From an uncultured Candidatus Saccharibacteria bacterium (GTDB lineage: Bacteria > Patescibacteriota > Minisyncoccia > Minisyncoccales > GWA2-38-27), in the NCBI GenBank assembly GCA_964387825.1, contig CAYLWZ010000004.1, forward strand, positions 1 through 56,731: a stretch of 56,731 nucleotides of DNA, written 5' to 3'. Shown here piece after piece: positions 8,268 through 56,731 of the stretch (positions within the stretch are counted from its first letter, which is position 1; each line of letters starts with the position of its first letter). The position numbers and the translations under genes are program-made. The notes beneath the pieces are model-generated. The model was not told the origin of the DNA. It made no database searches and saw only the letters and a list, made by a program, of their open reading frames with translations.

Positions 8268-8305
8268 TTACTCTAATAATGTCCGATCGGACATTATTAG
8301 AGTAA
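8268..8305. repeat. Perfect 38-bp palindrome, TCTAATAATGTCCGATCGGACATTATTAGA family, copy 1 of 4
   Basis: TTACTCTAATAATGTCCGA|TCGGACATTATTAGAGTAA. Confidence 0.95.
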
Positions 8306-8320
8306 TATAAACGTTTGGTT

Positions 8321-9193: not shown

Positions 9194-10658
9194 AAAGATT
9201 TAATCGAGGAAACAACGAGTTCCCTCTTTTTCTTTTTACAAACTTTCCCGTTCTTTTGTCTCTTTCTATTTCTTTTTTAATTCTTTCTGAAGTTTCGGGC
9301 AAAAACGGTTCCAGCATTTGAGCGATACTGTCTAAAGAAATCAGTAAATCATTAATGATTGACGGCTTATTTTTAACGTCTTCCCAAGGTCGGGTTTGTT
9401 CAATATATTTATCGCAAAAACTAATCAATCCCCAAATTGCTTTCAAAGATTCATTAAACTTAAATTCTTCTAAAGCTTTTTTATAATTCTCCAAAATTTT
9501 ATCAACCCTTTTTTGAAAATTGGGATTTGAAAATTTATTGAAAATTGAAAATTGAAAATTGAAAATTTTAGCAAGGGTTATTACTCTTGCCACCAAGTTT
9601 CCCAAACCATTTGCTAAATCGCTATTATATCTCTCCTCAAATTTTTTATAAGTAAAATCGCCGTCCTCGGCCGGAGGGATTTCTCTTAAGAGAAAATACC
9701 TTACAGCGTCTGTTCCATATTTTCCAACAAGCTCAAAAGGGTCAACAATATTTCCTAACGATTTTGATATTTTTTGCTTGTCAATATTGATAAATCCATG
9801 GACAAAAATTTTTTTTGGAAGTTCCAATCCAAGAGATAAAAGTATTGCCGGCCATATTAAAGCGTGAAATTTCAATATATCCTTGCCAACGCAATGGACA
9901 TCCGCCGGCCAATATTTTTTAAATTCTTTGCCATCGGGATACCCTAACGCTGAAACATAATTCAGAAGAGCGTCTGCCCAGACATAAATTGTTTGAGTTG
10001 AGTCGCCGGGAACCTCTATCCCCCATTTTAACCTTGACCTTGACCTTGAGAAACTAATATCTGTAAGTTTCCGTCTGATAAAACCCAGCGCTTCGTTTTT
10101 TCTTGTTTTAGGAATAATTTTTATTTTATCTTTTTCTAAAATTTTCTCTATTTTTCCCGCGTATTTTGAAAGACGAAAAAAATAATTTTCTTCCCTAACG
10201 ACTTCCGGCTTTTTTTTATGGATAGGACATTTGCCTTTAATTAACTCTCTTTCGGCAATAAAGGCCTCGCAGCCCGAACAATAAAGCCCCTCATATTTTT
10301 TTTTATAAATATCTCCTTTGTTTTCTATCTTCCTCCAAATCTTTTTCACTGTCGGCCAATGCCTCTTTTTATCAGTAGTTTTGATAAAATCGTCATTGGA
10401 GATATTTAAAATTTTCTCTAACTCTTTAAATCTGTTTGAAATTTTATCAACAAGCTCTTTCGGCGTTTTCCCTGCTTTCTTTGCCGCTTCGGCAATTTTT
10501 ATCCCGTGCTCATCAGTCCCGGTCAGAAAGAAAACATCATCGCCTATAATACGATGATAGCGGGCTAATACATCTGCCTGGACCGCTTCTAAAGCAAAGC
10601 CAATATGGGGGAAAGCATTAGCATAAGCTATGCTTGTTGTTATATAAAATTTCCTCAT
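9183..10658 (-). CDS. metG: Methionine--tRNA ligase (short form)
   Basis: YAN..PHIG, FLTGTDEHG, YVWADAL, GKDILKFH, KISKS. Confidence 0.96.
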   Translation of the reverse strand: MRKFYITTSIAYANAFPHIGFALEAVQADVLARYHRIIGDDVFFLTGTDEHGIKIAEAAKKAGKTPKELVDKISNRFKELEKILNISNDDFIKTTDKKRHWPTVKKIWRKIENKGDIYKKKYEGLYCSGCEAFIAERELIKGKCPIHKKKPEVVREENYFFRLSKYAGKIEKILEKDKIKIIPKTRKNEALGFIRRKLTDISFSRSRSRLKWGIEVPGDSTQTIYVWADALLNYVSALGYPDGKEFKKYWPADVHCVGKDILKFHALIWPAILLSLGLELPKKIFVHGFINIDKQKISKSLGNIVDPFELVGKYGTDAVRYFLLREIPPAEDGDFTYKKFEERYNSDLANGLGNLVARVITLAKIFNFQFSIFNKFSNPNFQKRVDKILENYKKALEEFKFNESLKAIWGLISFCDKYIEQTRPWEDVKNKPSIINDLLISLDSIAQMLEPFLPETSERIKKEIERDKRTGKFVKRKRGNSLFPRLNLYVN

Positions 10659-11697: not shown

Positions 11698-11826
11698 AAT
11701 TTTCAATTATCAATTTTCAATTATCAATAAATTTTCCAATTAACCAATTTTCAAACAAAGTCATAAAATTTGAATATTGAAAAATTGAGATTTTATTGAA
11801 AATTGGTCATTGAAAATTGAAAATTA
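11698..11826. repeat. Two-armed (TTTTCAA)n/(TTGAAAA)n element; inverted copy at 39468-39613
   Basis: Left arm of TTTTCAA/TTATCAA units, right arm of TTGAAAA units; both arms match the reverse complement of 39468-39613. Confidence 0.85.
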
Positions 11827-19255: not shown

Positions 19256-19260
19256 AAAAT

Positions 19261-27399: not shown

Positions 27400-27921
27400 T
27401 TACAATGAAAGAAAATCATTGGCTTTTTTAAGGATTTCTTTCACTTTTTTAAATGATAACTGTTTAAGGGCTTCTTCGTAAGGCAGCCATTTAAAGTCCG
27501 TATGTTCAAAAGAAATTTTTACTTCTTTGGTTCTCGTTTCAGCCAATAAAAAAGTGACTATTTTAAAAACCCAAGGAGCTTTTTCTTCTTGCCCGCCTCG
27601 GCTATGCCGAAGGCGTTGCGGGCGGGCCTGCCCGCCGCGTTTTCCGTTGGAAGCGGAAGGCAAGCGAGGATTTTTTTTTAATCCATAAATATCTCGAAAA
27701 GCGTATTTTGTATACTCTTTAAACCCTTTGAGCACTCTGATGTTCTCAAGCCCGGTTTCTTCTTTAACCTCTCTTCTTGCCGTATCTTCCTCTTTTTCCC
27801 CTCCTTCAATATGCCCTTTGGGAAAACCCCAATGCCCTGCCCCATAATGAAGAAGCAGATAATAAGTTTTATTATTCTCTTTTCTGAAAATAACGGCCCC
27901 AGCCGATGTTTCTCTTGGCAT
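27400..27921 (-). CDS. NUDIX hydrolase (Ap4A hydrolase-like) with in-frame palindrome insertion
   Basis: SAGAV, WGFPKGHIE.GE...TARREVKEETG Nudix box, EH..FKWL. Confidence 0.9.
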   Translation of the reverse strand: MPRETSAGAVIFRKENNKTYYLLLHYGAGHWGFPKGHIEGGEKEEDTARREVKEETGLENIRVLKGFKEYTKYAFRDIYGLKKNPRLPSASNGKRGGQARPQRLRHSRGGQEEKAPWVFKIVTFLLAETRTKEVKISFEHTDFKWLPYEEALKQLSFKKVKEILKKANDFLSL

Positions 27922-27992: not shown

Positions 27993-28036
27993 GCCTTCTT
28001 CTAATAATGTCCGATCGGACATCATTAGAAGAAGGC
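27993..28036. repeat. 44-bp palindrome (one mismatch), TCTAATAATGTCCGATCGGACATTATTAGA family, copy 2 of 4
   Basis: GCCTTCTTCTAATAATGTCCGA|TCGGACATCATTAGAAGAAGGC. Confidence 0.95.
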
Positions 28037-28094
28037 AAAAAATCCCTTGTCGGGGTTAGACCCCGACAACCCCGGTAATCTCCCTTAAAAATAA

Positions 28095-30741: not shown

Positions 30742-30777
30742 TCCTCTAATAATGTCCGATCGGACATTATTAGAGGA
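30742..30777. repeat. Perfect 36-bp palindrome, copy 3 of 4 (3' of the PaaX-like gene)
   Basis: TCCTCTAATAATGTCCGA|TCGGACATTATTAGAGGA. Confidence 0.95.
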
Positions 30778-30802
30778 AGACGAAAAAAACAAAAAAATAA
30801 GA

Positions 30803-31378: not shown

Positions 31379-31414
31379 TCTTCTAATAATGTCCGATCGG
31401 ACATTATTAGAAGA
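31379..31414. repeat. Perfect 36-bp palindrome, copy 4 of 4 (18 nt upstream of the PaaX-like ATG)
   Basis: TCTTCTAATAATGTCCGA|TCGGACATTATTAGAAGA. Confidence 0.95.
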
Positions 31415-31465
31415 TTGATCTTATTCGTTGAAAACAATTTATTCCCAAAATACTTGTTCTCAAAA

Positions 31466-33241: not shown

Positions 33242-33316
33242 CCCGTTTTCAGAGATGCCCCGTTGGATCAAGGGACAGTCAAGGGACAGTCAAGGGACAG
33301 TCCCTCCCCTGTCCCT
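33242..33316. repeat. (AGGGACAGTCA)x3-CCTCCCCTGT repeat, copy 2 of 2
   Basis: 42 bp identical to 24836-24877; AGGGACAG/CTGTCCCT hairpin at 33293-33316. Confidence 0.9.
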
Positions 33317-33345
33317 CTGAAACCTCTGAGGCCTTCGAAAACCTC

Positions 33346-37831: not shown

Positions 37832-39613
<1,782 letters not shown>

Positions 39614-43686: not shown

Positions 43687-43697
43687 TAATAATAAAT

Positions 43698-43849
43698 AAT
43701 TTTGAATTTTGAATTTTGAATCAATTTTGAATGATTTAATGATTTAATTTTTAGACAAAAAAGAATTAACTCCAAAAAAAACTTTTTTGTTTATTTCATT
43801 AAAAAATTCAAAAATTAAATCATTTATTCAAAATTCAAAATTCAAAATT
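43698..43849. repeat. Two-armed (TTTTGAA)n/(TTCAAAA)n element; copy at 53215-53352
   Basis: Both copies share the arms ATTTTGAATTTTGAATTT..AATCAATTT.GAATGAT and TTTATTCAAAATTCAAAATTCAAAATT. Confidence 0.85.
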
Positions 43850-43866
43850 ATTTATTATTAGGGAGG

Positions 43867-48234: not shown

Positions 48235-48280
48235 AAGTAAAAAATCTATTGATTTTTATTCAAATATATTATATCATAAA

Positions 48281-48342
48281 ATATCTAATATCCACTATCT
48301 AATATTCAATATCCAATAAATATCTAATATCTAATATCTAAT
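48281..48342. repeat. Degenerate (ATCTAAT)n heptamer array directly before rpsF
   Basis: Units ATCTAAT/ATCCAAT up to the ATG. Confidence 0.75.
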
Positions 48343-48343
48343 T

Positions 48344-48772
48344 ATGAATTATTATGAAATCACTTGCCTGACGGCGCCTTCTCTCTCCGGGGAAGAAATT
48401 CGGGAAATTTCCGAGAAAATAAAAAATTTCATCAAAGAAGAATCCGGCACTTTAGAAAAAACCGCTTTTCCCTCAGAAGACAATTCGGTTTCTTTTGCAA
48501 GGATAGCTAAAAGAACTCCTTTAATCGTTTTAAGTTTTTTCTTGGAACCGAAAAATATAGAAAATATAGAAAAGAAAATTAAATCTGAAAATCAAATTCT
48601 TCGCCATATGCTTTTAAGTAAGAAAATTTATAAAGAAAATCCGGCAAGAAAAAATTTACTCAAAAAAACCGGAGACAAGCGCGAACGCGCCGCCTCCCCG
48701 GGAAAAAACAAAAAGGTTGAATTAGAAGAAATTGATAAAAAAATAGAAGAAATTTTAAAAATTAACGAATAA
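48344..48772 (+). CDS. rpsF: 30S ribosomal protein S6
   Basis: YE...L..P.LS, ILRHML; rpsF-ssb-rpsR order. Confidence 0.88.
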   Translation: MNYYEITCLTAPSLSGEEIREISEKIKNFIKEESGTLEKTAFPSEDNSVSFARIAKRTPLIVLSFFLEPKNIENIEKKIKSENQILRHMLLSKKIYKENPARKNLLKKTGDKRERAASPGKNKKVELEEIDKKIEEILKINE

Positions 48773-48833: not shown

Positions 48834-49367
<534 letters not shown>

Positions 49368-49387
49368 AATTTCTAATTTCTAATTTC

Positions 49388-49439
49388 CCCGCCCGCAACG
49401 CTTCGCAAACGAGCTTGCTCGCGTAGCGATGCGGGCGGG
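49388..49439. repeat. GC-rich branched palindromic element (family A), embedded in a (TTTCTAA)n run
   Basis: CCCGCCCGCAACGCTTCGCAAACGAGCTTGCTCGCGTAGCGATGCGGGCGGG. Confidence 0.92.
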
Positions 49440-49452
49440 TAATTTCTAAACT

Positions 49453-49650
49453 ATGGACTGTTATTTTTGCCAGAGGAACATAAAAGAAATTGATTTCAAA
49501 AACATAACGACTCTCCAAAGGTTTATTTCTGGTCTGGCTAAAATCAAACCCAGAAAGAAAACCGGGCTTTGCGCCAAACACCAAAGACAACTGGCAAAAG
49601 CGATTAAAAGAGCCCGGCATTTTGGTTTGCTTCCTTATACAACAAAGTAG
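49453..49650 (+). CDS. rpsR: 30S ribosomal protein S18 (zinc-binding type)
   Basis: CYFC, IDFKN...L.RFIS..AKI, TG.CAKHQR.LA.AIKRAR..GLLPY. Confidence 0.95.
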   Translation: MDCYFCQRNIKEIDFKNITTLQRFISGLAKIKPRKKTGLCAKHQRQLAKAIKRARHFGLLPYTTK

Positions 49651-49768
49651 ATGATAGATATTGGATATTAGATCTTAGTCTAAAAAACAAAAAAAACAGC
49701 TTAAAGCTGTTTTTTTATCATCTAATATCTAATATCTAATATCTAATATCTAATATCTAATATCTAAT
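49648..49768. repeat. TTAGATA-type left arm / (ATCTAAT)x7 right arm enclosing a bidirectional terminator
   Basis: Seven perfect units at 49720-49768; AAAAAAAACAGC-TTAAA-GCTGTTTTTTT hairpin in the middle, between convergent rpsR and recA. Confidence 0.85.
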
Positions 49769-50811
49769 TAGGACTGTTCAAGAATAGTTTTTTCAATCTT
49801 TTTCGTTACCTCGGGATTCTCTCCCAAAAATTTTTTAGCGCCCTCCATTCCTTGTCCTAATCTCGTATTTTCGTATTGAAACCAGCTTCCTGATTTTTTG
49901 ACAATCCCTTCTTTTAATCCGGCATTCAAAATGTCGGCCAGATAAGAAATCCCCTCATTATAATAAATATCAAATTCAGTAACTTTAAAAGGAGCGGCTA
50001 CTTTATTTTTAACTATTTTAGCCTTAATCCGGCTACCGATAATTTCATCGCCGTGTTTTATCTGAGCAATTCTTCTCAAGTTAATTCTCACCGAAGCGTA
50101 AAATTTTAAAGCCAAGCCGCCGGAAGTCACTTCGGGATTGCCAAAAATAACTCCGATTTTCATTCTGGTCTGGTTCAAAAATATCACAGCCGTTTTGGTT
50201 TTAGCGATAACCCCGGACAATTTTCTCAAAGCTGAAGACATCAACCTTGCCTGAAGTCCTATCCGAAAATCACCCATATCTCCGGTAATTTCCGCTTTTG
50301 GAGCCAAGGCGGCCACTGAATCAACCACTACAACATCAACATCTCCTGAATGCACCAACGTTTCTACGATTTGCAGCGCCTCTTCTCCTGAATCCGGTTG
50401 AGAGATTAAAAGGTCGTTAACATTAACCCCTATTCTTTTTGCGTAATCCGGGTCCAAAGCATGCTCAACGTCAATAAAAGCGGCTACGCCATTTTGTTTT
50501 TGGGCTTCGGCGCAAATATGCAGAGCCAAAGTGCTTTTTCCCGTGGATTCCGGGCCATAAATTTCAACCACTCGTCCGCGAGGAATTCCGCCCACTCCTA
50601 AAATTTTATCCAAAGAAATAGAGCCGGTTGGAATGACATCAACATCAACAGCGCCGATTTCGTCAAGTTTCATAATCGCCCCCTCTCCAAAACGCTGTTT
50701 AATTTCATCTATCGCTTCAGCTAAATCTTTTTTCTCCCCGCCTGCATCGCTATGCGAAGCATTGCGGGCAGGCCCGCCTGCTGGCGAATTTTTATCTTTT
50801 TTCTTAGCCAT
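49768..50811 (-). CDS. recA: Recombinase A
   Basis: [46 protein letters not shown]. Confidence 0.98.
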
Positions 50812-50903
50812 AACCTCATTTTAACATTATTGAGTAAATTTGATAGGGCGGGCGACCCACGGGTCGCCCCTAAGATTTTTCCATAACAATGTAACAATAT
50901 TTT

Positions 50904-53176: not shown

Positions 53177-53214
53177 GATATAAAAAAAGAATCACGCCCT
53201 GGAGAACGTGATTC

Positions 53215-53352
53215 AATTTTGAATTTTGAATTTCTAATCAATTTAGAATGATAGAATTTTGAATGAATTAATAAACGGAATAAATCTGTTTCAAAATTGA
53301 GTTATTAGATTATTCAAAATTTATTCAAAATTCAAAATTCAAAATTCAAAAT
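53215..53352. repeat. Two-armed (TTTTGAA)n/(TTCAAAA)n element; copy of 43698-43849
   Basis: Shared arms, different centre. Confidence 0.85.
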
Positions 53353-56300
53353 TATTTTCTAAACCCTGTTCCCGCCGGTATTAACTTTCCAATAATAACG
53401 TTCTCTTTTAGTCCTCTTAATTTGTCTTCCTTGCCTTCAAGGCAGGTTTTAATCAAGACCCGAGAAGTTTCTTGAAAAGAAGCAGACGATAAAAATGAAT
53501 CTGTTGTAAGGGCAACCCGCGATATGCCCAATAAAATAATAGCGGCTTTTGCCGGATTTTTTTTCTCCTTCTTCAACTTCTCGTTTTCTTCAAGAAACCT
53601 TGCCTTCTCAATAACCTCTCCGATTATAAAAGGGCTATCTCCCGGTTCCTTTATTTTAACCCGCGAAAACATCTGACGAATTATTGTCTCAATATGCTTA
53701 TCGTGAATAAAGGCGCCCTGGGAAACATAAATTTTTTGAATCTCATTTAAAATATATTTTTGCGTTTCTTCTCTACGCCCTGTTTTAAAAATTTCTTTTA
53801 GGTCCAAACTCCCTTCGCAAAGCTGTTCTCCTTTTTTAACATCCTGCCCTTTTTTCACTAAAATTGCCGACTTGGAAGATATTTTATATTCAATAATGTC
53901 TCTTTTCTTCTTTGTTTTGGATTTTGACGCTTTGTTGTAAGCGTTTTCCCAGGATTGAGAATCTAAAATTTTCGGCTCTATTGTAATTATCCTTTCCTTT
54001 ACCGTTCCGTTTGATAGTCTCGTTTCTATAATGTCTAAAACTTTTCCTTCAACAAAAGAAATTTCTGCTTTCCCGCCAGGCGTTCTCGCCTCAAAAACTT
54101 CCTGCACCCTCGGAAGGCCGAGAGTAATATCTCCTCCGCCCACTACTCCGCCAGTATGAAAGGTTCTTAACGTAAGCTGGGTGCCCGGCTCGCCGATTGC
54201 CTGAGCAGCAACAATTCCCACCGCTTCTCCCAACTTAACTAATCTGTCATGGCCAAGGTCCCAGCCGTAACATTTTCGGCAAACACCTCGAACAGATTTA
54301 CAGGAGAGAGGAGACCTGGCGACAATCCTGTCAACCTCCTCTGCTTTTATCTTTCGCGCCACCGCCCAATCAATTATTTCGCCCTTTTTGACAATCACCT
54401 TATTTTTTGTTTTTTTTGATTTGACGTCCTCCAATACTATCCTGCCAATGGTCTTATAAATAAACTTTTGGCCTAATTCATCAGCGTCCTTTTTTAATAA
54501 CTCAACTCCTTTTTGGTCTCCGCAATCCTCTTCCGACACCACTACGTCATGAGCGACGTCAACAAGACGCCTGGTTAAATAACCAGCCGTTGAAGTGCGA
54601 AGAGCAGTATCCGCCGTTCCTTTCCGCGCCCCGTGAGTAGAAATAAAATATTCCAAGACATCAAACCCTTCTTTAAAAGAATGCTTTACCGGCATCTCAA
54701 TAATCTGGCCGGACGGATTGATAACCAGCCCTTTCATTCCGGTCATTTGGATTGGCTGGGTCCAAGAACCTCTGGCGCCGGAATCAATCATTGAAAATAC
54801 CGATCCCGTATCAGACAAAGTTTTCGGAACAAGTTTTTCTAATTTTGTCTTCGCTCTTGTCCAAACCTCAACCACCTTACTGCTTTTTTCCTCTTTAGAA
54901 AGAAGTCCTTTCTTGAGATAACTATTAATAGAATCAATTTCTCGCTCGGCGTTCTTCATAATTTCTTTTTTTTCTGGAGGAACTATCAAATCATCCATAC
55001 CCCAGGTTATGCCGGAAATGGTAGCCGATTCAAAACCTAAATCCTTAATTCTGTCCAATGTCTCTTCCGCTTCTTTCTGGCTATATTTATTAATAAACAA
55101 ACTAACTATCTTTTTTATTTTTTTCCCGTTAACCGTCTCGTTAAAAAATGGATAGCCGAGAGGTAAGGTTTCGTTAAACAAAATTCTTCCAACCGATGTT
55201 TCTATCACGCTTTGCATTCGCACCCGGATGCGGGCTCTCAAATTTATAAAACCGGATTCGTAGGCTAAAATCGCTTCTTCGGGACCGGAAAATACTCTTT
55301 TCCCGTTAATGTCCTGGCCAATAATTCTAGTTAGCCAATAACAACCAAGAACAATATCTTGAGTCGGGACGATAACCGGAGTGCCGCTCGCCGGTTTTAA
55401 TAAATTAAGAGAAGAGAGCATAAGTGTTTTTGCCTCTTCTTGCGCTTTCTCACTCAAAGGAAGATGGACTGCCATTTGGTCGCCGTCAAAATCGGCGTTG
55501 AACGCCTTACAAACCATCGGGTGTAAATGAATTGATTCCCCTTCCACTAAAAGCGGCTGAAAGGCCTGGATTCCCAAACGGTGAAGAGTCGGAGCCCTGT
55601 TTAAAAGAACAGCTTTATCTTTCACCACTTCTTCTAAAATCGCCCAAACATCGTCTGTCTGCCGCTCTATCAGCCTGCCAGCTCCTCGAACATTATAGGA
55701 AAGCTCTTTTTCTAAAATCTTTCTAATAACAAAAGGTTTAAATAATTCCAAAGCCATTTTTTTGGGAAGCCCACATTGGTGAAGCTTCAGTTTCGGCCCT
55801 ACGACAATTACCGACCTCCCTGAATAATCAACTCTCTTTCCTAAAAGATTTTGGCGAAATCTGCCTCGTTTTCCTTTAATAATATCGGCTAAAGATTTTA
55901 AGAGCCTCCTCCCGCCGGTAGTAGCAGTCGTTAAAATTCCTTTCCTCATACTGTTGTCAATTAAAGCGTCCACTGCCTCTTGAAGCATTCTTTTTTCATT
56001 TCTGACAATAACTTCCGGCGCCGCGATTTCCAGCAGATATTTCAGACGATTATTCCTATTAATTACTCTCCGATAAAGGTCGTTTAAATCAGAAGAAGCG
56101 TAACGGCCGCCGTCTAATTGAACCATCGGCCTTAAATCAGGAGGCAGAATCGGCAGGACTGTTAAAAACATCCATTCGGGCTTAATTCCAACGGCAAGCA
56201 TACCTTCTAACAACCTTAACCGCCTTAAAAGCTTCCGCCGAGTCATCGCTGTTTCTTTTTCCGCTTTTTTCTTTAGCGCCTTGATTTCTTTTTTTAAATC

Positions 56301-56731
56301 AAGTTGCTCAAAAATTTTCCTTAAAATTTCGGAACCGGTTCCCGCTTCAAAAGTTTCTCCATATTTTAAAGAATAATTATAATATTCCACTTCGGAGAGA
56401 ACCGCCAAGGGTTTAATTTTTAAAACATCTTCCTTTGCCCCGTCCCTTGCCTTTTTCAATTCGTCTAAACATGTTTTGAGCTTCTTTTTATCTTTAATTC
56501 CTGCCCGCAATGCTTTGCTATGCGAGGCAGGCGGGTTTAATCTTAAATCTTTAATCTTTATGTTATATTCTTTTTCAATCTCATCTCCAACTTTTTTCCT
56601 TGCGTCTTCGTCCACGGAAGTCACAATATAAGCGGCGAAATAAATAACTTTTTCCAACTGCTGCATGGGAATATCCAAAACCATTCCTATTCTTGAAGGA
56701 AGCCCTCGCAAAAACCAGATATGAGAAACAG
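53352..56731 (-). CDS. rpoC: RNA polymerase beta' subunit (5' end outside window)
   Basis: PVSHIWFLRG at the window edge, LLGKRVDYSGRSVI, NADFDGDQMAVH, AAQAIGEPGTQLT, GLKENVIIG. Confidence 0.99.
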   Translation of the reverse strand, partial: VSHIWFLRGLPSRIGMVLDIPMQQLEKVIYFAAYIVTSVDEDARKKVGDEIEKEYNIKIKDLRLNPPASHSKALRAGIKDKKKLKTCLDELKKARDGAKEDVLKIKPLAVLSEVEYYNYSLKYGETFEAGTGSEILRKIFEQLDLKKEIKALKKKAEKETAMTRRKLLRRLRLLEGMLAVGIKPEWMFLTVLPILPPDLRPMVQLDGGRYASSDLNDLYRRVINRNNRLKYLLEIAAPEVIVRNEKRMLQEAVDALIDNSMRKGILTTATTGGRRLLKSLADIIKGKRGRFRQNLLGKRVDYSGRSVIVVGPKLKLHQCGLPKKMALELFKPFVIRKILEKELSYNVRGAGRLIERQTDDVWAILEEVVKDKAVLLNRAPTLHRLGIQAFQPLLVEGESIHLHPMVCKAFNADFDGDQMAVHLPLSEKAQEEAKTLMLSSLNLLKPASGTPVIVPTQDIVLGCYWLTRIIGQDINGKRVFSGPEEAILAYESGFINLRARIRVRMQSVIETSVGRILFNETLPLGYPFFNETVNGKKIKKIVSLFINKYSQKEAEETLDRIKDLGFESATISGITWGMDDLIVPPEKKEIMKNAEREIDSINSYLKKGLLSKEEKSSKVVEVWTRAKTKLEKLVPKTLSDTGSVFSMIDSGARGSWTQPIQMTGMKGLVINPSGQIIEMPVKHSFKEGFDVLEYFISTHGARKGTADTALRTSTAGYLTRRLVDVAHDVVVSEEDCGDQKGVELLKKDADELGQKFIYKTIGRIVLEDVKSKKTKNKVIVKKGEIIDWAVARKIKAEEVDRIVARSPLSCKSVRGVCRKCYGWDLGHDRLVKLGEAVGIVAAQAIGEPGTQLTLRTFHTGGVVGGGDITLGLPRVQEVFEARTPGGKAEISFVEGKVLDIIETRLSNGTVKERIITIEPKILDSQSWENAYNKASKSKTKKKRDIIEYKISSKSAILVKKGQDVKKGEQLCEGSLDLKEIFKTGRREETQKYILNEIQKIYVSQGAFIHDKHIETIIRQMFSRVKIKEPGDSPFIIGEVIEKARFLEENEKLKKEKKNPAKAAIILLGISRVALTTDSFLSSASFQETSRVLIKTCLEGKEDKLRGLKENVIIGKLIPAGTGFRK

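Follow-up and report, generated by a model that had tools for sequence, protein, structure and literature searches.

Which kind of DNA can be read as part of RecA, of RNA polymerase and of a NUDIX protein on one bacterial contig, and also lie between genes in closely similar form, and what moves it? This question is raised by a GC-rich imperfect palindrome that recurs in a stretch of 56,731 nucleotides (hereafter the window), contig CAYLWZ010000004.1 of an assembly labelled uncultured Candidatus Saccharibacteria bacterium (GCA_964387825.1). The nearest relatives by RecA homologues are Candidatus Nealsonbacteria, and the window is a Nealsonbacteria-type Patescibacteria contig, AT-rich at 31–43% GC. 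Patescibacteria genomes are tiny and leave little room for selfish DNA. A first reading of the letters alone (the original prediction) had named five copies of the palindrome and likened them to Rickettsia palindromic elements (RPEs), as a recently active system in this lineage. We consider it very probable that the palindrome is an insertional element translated as peptide loops. The fuller explanation, which we prefer with moderate confidence, is a small non-autonomous insertion element that is moved by a cassette encoding a GIY-YIG nuclease and translated as loops in genes. The window holds five copies, two 53-nt long forms in spacers and three in-frame short forms, which are listed here with two adjoining features:

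50737..50772, minus strand: short form of 36 nt in recA, read in forward frame 0 as RecA residues 14–25
56500..56535, plus strand (gene on the minus strand): short form of 36 nt in rpoC, read in reverse-strand frame 1 as PPASHSKALRAG
27588..27626, minus strand: diverged copy of 38–39 nt, with indels, in a NUDIX gene (translation ..ARPQRLRHSRGGQ..)
25749..25801, plus strand: long form of 53 nt (the short form extended by the inner hairpin GCGAGCTTGCTCGC), flanked by the GIY-YIG gene and the transfer-messenger RNA (tmRNA) gene
49387..49439, plus strand: long form of 53 nt, in the ssb–rpsR spacer of the rpsF–ssb–rpsR operon
27627..27669, minus strand: second, different GC-rich hairpin, which abuts the NUDIX copy and encodes the NPRLPSASNGKRGGQ part of the insert
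50773..50784, minus strand: CCAGCAGGCGGG (PAGG), directly upstream of the recA copy in the coding sense, repeating the 3' end of the element

A profile built from 33 distinct 36-nt sequences of the element recovered exactly these five sites in the window and no others. The core GCCCGCAAYGC was matched seven times compared with 0.56 expected (∼12-fold), a count of at least seven being reached in none of 100 shuffles, and GCGGGCRGG was matched seven times compared with 0.45 expected. All five predicted copies were retained at the places originally given, the one correction being the recA copy, which begins at 50737 rather than 50736. The host genes were identified by Pfam as RecA, RNA polymerase beta' and NUDIX, and in each the copy is in frame and free of stops, with the translations originally given. 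The copies are read on both strands and in different frames, as had been claimed: forward frame 0 in recA, reverse frame 1 in rpoC (in the context ..LN-PPASHSKALRAG-IKD..) and the equivalent of forward frame 2 in NUDIX, where reading is possible because indels have removed a TAG. The recA copy matches the commonest variant of the element, CCTGCCCGCAATGCTTCGCATAGCGATGCAGGCGGG, at 36 of 36 positions, and the rpoC copy differs from it by four mismatches.

The two long forms had been called intergenic, which is correct, but their places are more specific, being the junction of the GIY-YIG and tmRNA genes and the rpsF–ssb–rpsR operon. At the former, the terminal GGG of the copy is also the first GGG of the tmRNA. 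The latter copy, 96% identical to the former, lies 14 nt ahead of the start of rpsR (ribosomal protein S18, 65 aa; 49453–49650, plus strand), which is the real gene at this locus; a 103-aa open reading frame (ORF) on the minus strand (49309–49620) was rejected as spurious. No terminator-like site was called at the 49387 or 50737 copies.

The empty site of the recA copy is present in relatives at both the protein and the DNA level. It reads AAT TCG CCG GCG GGC GGA|GAG in L243 and ..CCA GCT GGC GGA|GAA in L246, and the window has exactly 36 nt extra at this junction (protein ..NSPAGG|element|EKKDL). Because the copy is a 36/36 match to the commonest variant and is missing in the nearest RecA relatives (86–87% identity), it is recent, in keeping with the predicted recent activity. 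The PAGG sequence CCAGCAGGCGGG next to it may be the remnant of an older copy, and its site marks an insertion hot spot. P(A/T)GG is present in many RecA relatives and missing in the closest ones, P0006 and P0009. The motif N(P/S)P(A/T)GGE, widespread in RecA relatives, is coded in L246 by a GC-rich mini-palindrome, CCGCCAGCTGGCGG, and this mini-palindrome of the RecA tail could be the leftover of an old hairpin. In L244, this recA point is occupied by a different hairpin element. A 9-nt direct repeat at recA, GCAGGCGGG, was considered as a target duplication and rejected; the repeat is apparent because the target already carried PAGG and ended in GCAGGCGGG. Different inserts of 10–25 residues were also observed at the same point of the RecA tails of P0028, P0029, P0041, P0056 and P0099.

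In the NUDIX protein, the window has 26 extra residues that are missing in 59 relatives, which read GLKKE..EKKKAPWVFKIV. This insert consists of the element and the second hairpin (27627–27669), the outer stem of which resembles that of the element and the inner hairpin of which can be read as TTCCG..CGGAA. In another organism, whose NUDIX protein is 64% identical (P0126/L245), an identical 36-mer lies three residues further on, between GCG CCT and TGG. The rpoC copy is located in a length-variable, Lys-rich region of beta', and the closest homologues, P0241 and P0286, do not have it; the argument for insertion appears weaker here, as these homologues are only ∼70% identical. The alignments proposed with the original prediction gave clean empty sites for both recA, with its 36-nt addition, and NUDIX, with rpoC agreeing less firmly.

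The location of the inserts was then considered on AlphaFold models. In NUDIX, residues 84–111 have a predicted local distance difference test (pLDDT) score below 50 and lie between two strands, the rest of the fold being above 90. In RecA, the insert falls in a disordered N-terminal tail (residues 1–27, pLDDT<50), ahead of the first helix. The inserts of the window are thus predicted to be located in disordered surface loops or tails. Clean insertion, empty sites, an identical 36-mer at another NUDIX codon and disordered location together constitute the RPE-like behaviour that had been anticipated, and the likeness held for each property open to testing.

The element proved far more widespread than originally predicted, having been inserted in hundreds of other genomes, often in frame in essential genes. 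Copies elsewhere were collected by a loose 16-mer scan of genomes and a strict gapped scan of metagenomes, drawn from JGI, ENA, NCBI and Logan assemblies and covering public genomes, metagenomes and viral contigs. The loose scan was unspecific, with ∼85 of 119 stretches being chance matches in GC-rich genomes, although its matches to the full palindrome were informative. At least 147 full copies were obtained, 139 of them with distinct flanks. Exactly 36 nt were found in 125 of the 147 copies listed, and half of these belong to four variants, the commonest of which (29 copies) is identical to the recA copy of the window. The long form measures 52–54 nt, with spacer copies of 52–53 nt and in-frame copies of 54 nt. 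Near-identical copies occur in hosts of 31–63% GC, in many Patescibacteria classes and in Verrucomicrobiota; the host labels are Moranii-, Sacchari-, Davies-, Nomura-, Kuenen- and Giovannonibacteria, Paceibacterota, other Parcubacteria and Verrucomicrobiota/Kiritimatiellia. Among IMG/VR viral contigs, 14 stretches carry the element, some with at least three copies. The restriction to one lineage was therefore too narrow, as the same sequence is found in many Patescibacteria classes, in metagenome-assembled genomes of Verrucomicrobiota/Kiritimatiellia and in some viral contigs.

Chimeric joins can arise at palindromes, and the inserts might on that ground be attributed to assembly or sequencing artefacts, a concern that the original prediction had raised; nothing specific in the present data points to it. 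The same DNA was recovered on contigs from three other JGI samples (L001–L003) at 99.99–100% identity over 2.1–10.4 kb, including the recA copy, and the insert-bearing NUDIX protein was seen again on an additional contig (P0121). Copies from JGI, ENA, NCBI and Logan stand in an in-frame context, and the variants track host composition. The insertions stand, and we regard an artefact as practically negligible.

Across the collection, the exact unit has been inserted at many unrelated sites in many lineages, and identical sequence recurs in different genes and genomes. Its termini read CC(T/C)G... and ...GGCGGG, position 1 being C in 138 of the 139 copies with distinct flanks, and the flanks of these copies are unrelated to one another. 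Direct repeats of at least 3 nt at the 139 distinct copies were not above the shuffled expectation, and target-site duplication or microhomology failed as a general rule across the flank set. No conserved tetranucleotide was found in the 5' flanks, and the right flanks were not T-rich. Copies are nested inside each other's loops in L024, L200 and L201, and are arranged head-to-tail in L148 and L241. Copies at the tips of other inverted repeats were found in L125, L172, L228, L234, L235 and L240, in addition to the nested ones. Insertion into hairpin loops was nevertheless rejected as a rule, the overall enrichment being only modest: loop placement was 14.4% vs 8.9% for stems of at least 5 (Fisher p = 0.06) and 6.5% vs 2.2% for stems of at least 7. 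Reconstructed empty sites folded somewhat better than controls (p = 0.013).

As single-stranded DNA, the 36-nt hairpin folds at −18.5 kcal/mol (z ∼−5) in a GC-rich variant and at −12.5 kcal/mol in an AT-shifted one, and the consensus of the 52-nt long form reaches −24.8 kcal/mol (z −5.6). The stem contains conserved A.A/T.T mismatches, and the two strands are therefore not equivalent. A reading as an intrinsic terminator was rejected, as no T-run follows the hairpin, and a known RNA family was rejected in the absence of any Rfam match. [quoted passage not shown]

The genes that carry in-frame copies encode, by Pfam, UvrC (twice), UvrD, class I/II ribonucleotide reductase (RNR; twice), aminoacyl-tRNA synthetases of the Asp/Lys, Leu and Ile/Val types, PheT, an IscS-like desulfurase, ClpB, DnaK, IF2, GDP-mannose dehydratase, an aminotransferase, thioredoxin reductase and a Y1 transposase. 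In hosts below 45% GC, 27 of the 71 copies listed (38%) lie well inside long ORFs, compared with 62% of random positions. The length of 36 nt is a multiple of three and five of the six frames are open, forward frame 2 of the main variants containing a TAG. The ORF-internal copies are read in forward frame 0 in 19 of 27 cases, giving PARNAS(H/R/Q)SDAGG. The 54-nt in-frame long forms, the frame bias and the NUDIX indels that removed the TAG point to an insertion that would be blind to frame and followed by selection on the translated product. Within genes, the element persists only at places where it does no harm and when read in a harmless frame.

The frame statistics also bear on the suggestion that the copies in genes are not translated at all, being excised from the mRNA or else bypassed during translation in the manner of the 'byp' GC clusters of Magnusiomyces mitochondria. 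A stable GC-rich hairpin in an AT-rich message, together with that precedent (PMC8811140), speaks for it. Against it stand the multiple-of-three length, the 54-nt in-frame long forms, the bias to one stop-free hydrophilic frame and the TAG-removing indels in NUDIX, all pointing to selection on the translated product, and we consider it very improbable.

One pair of copies does not follow the expected pattern. The RNR copies of L079 and L180 are located at the same codon (..YVK|element|..) and are 36/36 identical, and their 300-nt flanks are 77% and 73% identical. Under drift at the flank rate, such identity has a chance of ∼3e-5. This case requires a hot spot, conversion or selection at the DNA level, and a simple course of insertion and decay does not predict it, which counts against the explanation we prefer. 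The sequence might instead be kept for a host function or for cell-to-cell exchange (binding, recognition, uptake, or a structural signal in RNA or DNA), its invariance being the outcome of selection or conversion. The near-identical copies across hosts of 31–63% GC, the RNR copy that is identical despite 23–27% flank divergence, and the defined placement relative to tRNA/tmRNA 5' ends in four loci would fit such a role. They are set against clean 36-nt insertions at unrelated places, presence or absence between close relatives, and the depletion in coding DNA and frame filtering that are expected of a burden. Furthermore, no Rfam family matches, no T-run indicates a terminator and the differences between variants are not compensatory. 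A host function is, on this evidence, improbable, although less so than bypassing.

The original prediction had left the mobilising enzyme unnamed. The search has been narrowed to a candidate, a stand-alone GIY-YIG nuclease whose gene is physically linked to copies of the element, including one in the window. The features of this locus are as follows:

25471..25719, plus strand: stand-alone GIY-YIG nuclease gene, 82 aa, candidate partner or mobiliser (Pfam PF01541, E 1.2e-14)
25799..26206, plus strand: tmRNA gene ssrA (Rfam RF00023, 100.8 bits), its 5' end supplied by the GGG of the element
24998..25459, plus strand: candidate smpB, upstream neighbour of the cassette, its translation recognised as SmpB by eye

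The GIY-YIG gene starts 12 nt past the stop of the 24998..25459 gene and is followed by 30 nt, the element and the tmRNA; the same order of smpB, GIY-YIG, element and tmRNA is found in L216. The GIY-YIG domain spans residues 1–71 of 82, and the protein consists of the catalytic domain only. An alignment of the GIY-YIG proteins shows conservation of the motif residues Y..Y.G, R and E, with a subfamily motif ..YYEAC..LKTGFGRAYLKRRL, and the 82-aa protein had no NCBIfam or PDB sequence match. A tblastn search with the window protein identified 15 homologues in 811 kb of element loci, 12 of which lie within 13–89 nt of a copy, and none in the ∼85 chance-match loci without the element. Homologues of the protein form ∼490 representative clusters. 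Among 150 representative homologues, peptides derived from the element are read in the ORF calls of P0366, P0434 and P0461, with a diverged one in a fourth. The protein is 47–71% identical between Patescibacteria and Verrucomicrobiota hosts, and because of this identity between phyla, a horizontal spread of the nuclease together with the element is suggested.

The copy-adjacent GIY-YIG genes are always found at tRNA or tmRNA genes or fragments of these, in at least seven independent contexts (tRNA-Val, Glu, Gln and Lys, and tmRNA twice). Three layouts were distinguished. In the first, the GIY-YIG gene is followed by the element and by the 5' end of a tmRNA or tRNA with a common GGG, as in the window, L216 and L261. 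In the second, a 5' tRNA fragment with the element in its D-arm is followed by the GIY-YIG gene and an intact tRNA (Glu, Gln, Lys and Gln in L108, L143, L220 and L024, respectively). In the third, seen in several Verrucomicrobiota loci, an intact tRNA-Val is followed by the GIY-YIG gene and by a 3' tRNA fragment with the element just ahead of the T-arm. The latter copies, after which GGTTCGA..CCA follows, were considered as part of a working tRNA, and this was rejected because the copy lies in a duplicated tRNA fragment: ARAGORN and Rfam identify an intact tRNA-Val upstream and only a 3' fragment after the copy. L261, reached by a protein search that made no use of the element pattern, contains a 45-nt hairpin that resembles the element and is joined to the 5' GGG of tRNA-Lys. 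When viral contigs were searched for GIY-YIG loci from the protein side, a single sequence found none and an alignment found one locus. In L195 (13702–13737), the element connects a tRNA-Glu-like 5' part, which extends through the anticodon arm, with the T-arm and acceptor of another tRNA; there is no pairing between the acceptor halves, and no tRNA was called by ARAGORN.

An explanation can be built from these observations. The 36-nt hairpin, or the 52–54-nt form with an extra inner hairpin, is inserted as a unit with exact ends and without duplication of the target. Insertions in genes survive where they meet a permissive surface loop or tail and a harmless frame, since 36 is divisible by three and five of the six frames are open; the copies in recA, rpoC and NUDIX are accounted for in this way. 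The frame that most often survives supplies P-A-R-N-A-S-H/R/Q-S-D-A-G-G, a hydrophilic linker that starts with Pro and ends in Gly-Gly. Clean and independent insertions, frame bias and disordered location are thus observed, and the mechanism of movement is inferred. The autonomous partner would be a mobile cassette with the 82-aa GIY-YIG nuclease, placed in or beside tRNA/tmRNA genes and adjoined by one hairpin copy. Having no DNA-binding domain, the nuclease might find the hairpin or cruciform through structure and sequence together and nick at the hairpin ends and at targets, in analogy to the REP-associated tyrosine transposase (RAYT) on REP hairpins. The near-invariance across phyla would then follow from the need for recognition by a conserved, horizontally moving enzyme. 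We hold the partnership of the GIY-YIG gene with the hairpin tentatively, as a real possibility that falls somewhat short of probable. Its more specific form, in which the 82-aa protein is a structure-guided nuclease that serves as the 'transposase' of the hairpin, homes to tRNA/tmRNA genes and crosses phyla, perhaps on phages, is more doubtful. On that reading the near-invariance of the hairpin, the RNR copy included, would come from copies being renewed or converted by the enzyme and not from plain decay.

Several points weigh against this proposal. The evidence for the nuclease is adjacency, and the nuclease gene could simply prefer the same targets: in L145 (656–895), upstream of groES, an unrelated inverted repeat of 24 nt (CCCCGTAGTAGAATTTCCAATT / AATTGGAAATTTCACTACGGGG) has a GIY-YIG gene of the same family in its loop, with no copy of the element beside it. 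The orientation of the element relative to the GIY-YIG gene is not fixed, and the multi-copy viral contigs have no GIY-YIG gene in the stretches examined. No GIY-YIG enzyme is known to act as the transposase of a hairpin. Exact ends without target duplication are not an obvious product of a nicking enzyme, and the partial tRNA duplications around the cassette are not accounted for.

These points lead to the main alternative, in which the hairpin is moved by another agent, such as an unlinked HUH/Y1 transposase (RAYT/IS200-like) or host replication and repair, and the GIY-YIG gene is a separate selfish gene that homes to tRNA genes or hairpins. The size of the element, its imperfect stem with A.A and T.T mismatches and its lack of target duplication resemble REPs and the ends of IS200/IS605. 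The L145 gene inside a hairpin other than the element fits this view, and most copies have no nuclease gene nearby. Copies of the element lie within 400 nt of a tRNA or tmRNA gene in 18 cases compared with 5 expected, and this enrichment holds even without the nuclease gene, the first layout occurring without it in L208 and the second in L044, L194 and L202. The GTAG/CGTC end tag that REPs have (PMC3733652) is, on the other hand, missing, as is any conserved 5' target tetranucleotide. No Y1 transposase adjoins the copies in the genome parts examined; the single Y1 protein found, in L203, merely hosts an in-frame copy, and a tblastn search with this protein gave no association of its relatives with the element, so that a Y1/RAYT transposase was rejected as the partner. 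The in-frame copy of L203 (2681–2716) is located between the two domains of an IS200-like Y1 transposase with a C-terminal extension. The spacing of 13–89 nt in 12 of 15 GIY-YIG genes is tighter than a shared regional preference would give. The window itself has no transposase: its content is that of an ordinary core genome (aminoacyl-tRNA synthetases, SHMT, FolD, GroES/EL, GreA, RecO, PolX, RNase J, FtsK, RecA, RNA polymerase beta', rpsF–ssb–rpsR, infC–rplT, smpB and ssrA), and no transposase, integrase or reverse transcriptase was found among the genes of the 57 kb. Movement by such a separate agent is thus unlikely, yet it is the foremost competitor of the nuclease-driven element.

The element is regarded as an analogue of the RPEs, not a homologue, and is set apart from them by length and hosts. 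RPEs are palindromic repeats without a transposase of their own that are inserted in frame in unrelated, often essential genes, where they yield a fold-compatible peptide (PMC10969869). The element shares with them in-frame insertion in unrelated genes at a structurally tolerant place, as well as copies in spacers. RPEs are ∼100–150 bp long, form ten families and are confined to Rickettsia, whereas the element has 36 nt (52–54 nt in the long form), is nearly invariant, has hosts in several phyla and shows linkage with a GIY-YIG gene and with tRNA/tmRNA genes. The GC clusters of yeast mitochondria are short GC-rich palindromes, found mostly in spacers but also in frame in var1, singly or in tandem and merging (PMC8811140). 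They are similar in that a GC-rich palindrome is set in an AT-rich genome and that copies occur both in frame and in tandem (L148 and L241 for the element). They differ in having terminal AG/TAG repeats that are taken as target duplications, and in evolving fast; the element has neither trait, is extremely conserved and is bacterial.

REPs are GC-rich hairpins of 20–40 nt in many copies, and a small nuclease gene flanked by copies is believed to serve them in trans (PMC2817692, PMC3733652). The size of the imperfect palindrome, the many copies and the small nuclease gene beside copies are common to both systems. The element, unlike REPs, has no GTAG/CGTC end tag, GTAG being present only inside the loop of some variants, and no Y1 transposase flanked by copies was found in the partial genomes examined, the linked gene being GIY-YIG. 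REPs are extragenic, whereas 38% of the element copies in low-GC hosts are inside long ORFs. MITEs such as Correia, ERIC and QMITE are likewise small non-autonomous repeats with occasional in-frame fusions, but they have terminal inverted repeats derived from insertion sequences (IS) and target duplications. No target duplication was seen here; as for terminal repeats, the element is a palindrome throughout, no parent IS was found, and the only linked gene, GIY-YIG, is adjoined by a copy on a single side.

For the linked gene, the T4 Seg class offers the nearest precedent. SegB of phage T4 is a free-standing GIY-YIG endonuclease whose gene lies among tRNA genes and promotes its own inheritance with its flanks (PMC2330249). 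The location at tRNA genes is common to both, and a position at tRNA/tmRNA genes with partial tRNA duplications would be compatible with site-specific cleavage near the gene and co-conversion of its flanks. Seg proteins have ∼200 or more residues with a DNA-binding domain, in contrast to the 82 residues and sole catalytic domain of the present protein, which is encoded beside a specific hairpin, in cellular genomes and with partial tRNA duplications.

Despite the small genomes of these bacteria, the same 36 bases are found in RecA, RNA polymerase, DnaK, ClpB, IF2, RNR and several aminoacyl-tRNA synthetases. This amounts to a repeated natural linker-insertion experiment, which can provide a map of tolerant sites in essential proteins. 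Such lineage-specific indels can mislead alignments, phylogenies and gene calls, and several GIY-YIG and tRNA-adjacent ORF calls were seen to read through copies. The element is also a sharp marker for horizontal transfer among uncultured phyla. The mobilising activity of RPEs and REPs has been hard to pin down; here, one small candidate gene adjoins the element and can be directly tested. If the GIY-YIG protein does move the hairpin, it would represent a new class of enzyme among the agents that move DNA hairpins, a partnership like that of REP and RAYT on a different catalytic fold, and a fixed 12-residue linker would be continually written into essential proteins.

Other repeats were observed around the element. 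Hairpins of the form CCTGCCCGCCATCGC...GGCGAGGCGGGC, related to the one at 27627–27669, flank many variant-B copies (L133, L135, L157, L168, L190, L222 and L226). In L247–L260, IMG/VR contigs from a few related samples, several variant-B copies are each bordered left and right by the direct repeat TCTGTGTCC, an arrangement that suggests variant B as the core of a larger composite repeat there; the flanks in L173, L198 and L232 are similar. In the GC-rich hosts of L125, L228, L234, L235 and L240, the element forms the centre of a larger common palindrome, CCTGCATCGCTCA.AAAT..[element]..ATTT.TGAGCGATGCAGG, which constitutes a composite element family.

The window contains further repeats of its own. 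A GC-rich hairpin, GGGCGACCCACGGGTCGCCC, lies in the ftsK–recA spacer just upstream of recA (50848–50870), and a similar hairpin, GGGGTCGCC..GGCGACCC, was seen upstream of a GIY-YIG gene in L136. An unrelated perfect 30-nt palindrome, TCTAATAATGTCCGATCGGACATTATTAGA, has four intergenic copies (8269–8314, 27997–28042, 30742–30787 and 31379–31424), and a repeat of GGGACAGTCAA units ending in GGGACAGTCCCTCCCCTGT has two (24831–24888 and 33266–33323). In most spacers of the window, heptamers rich in AT (AATATCT, AACTTAC, AAAATTG/TTTTCAA) are arrayed, frequently forming long inverted pairs that surround genes, with arrays located at 48280–48360, 49724–49770, 19257–19347, 9516–9565, 11698–11823, 39461–39609, 43688–43860 and 53212–53356.

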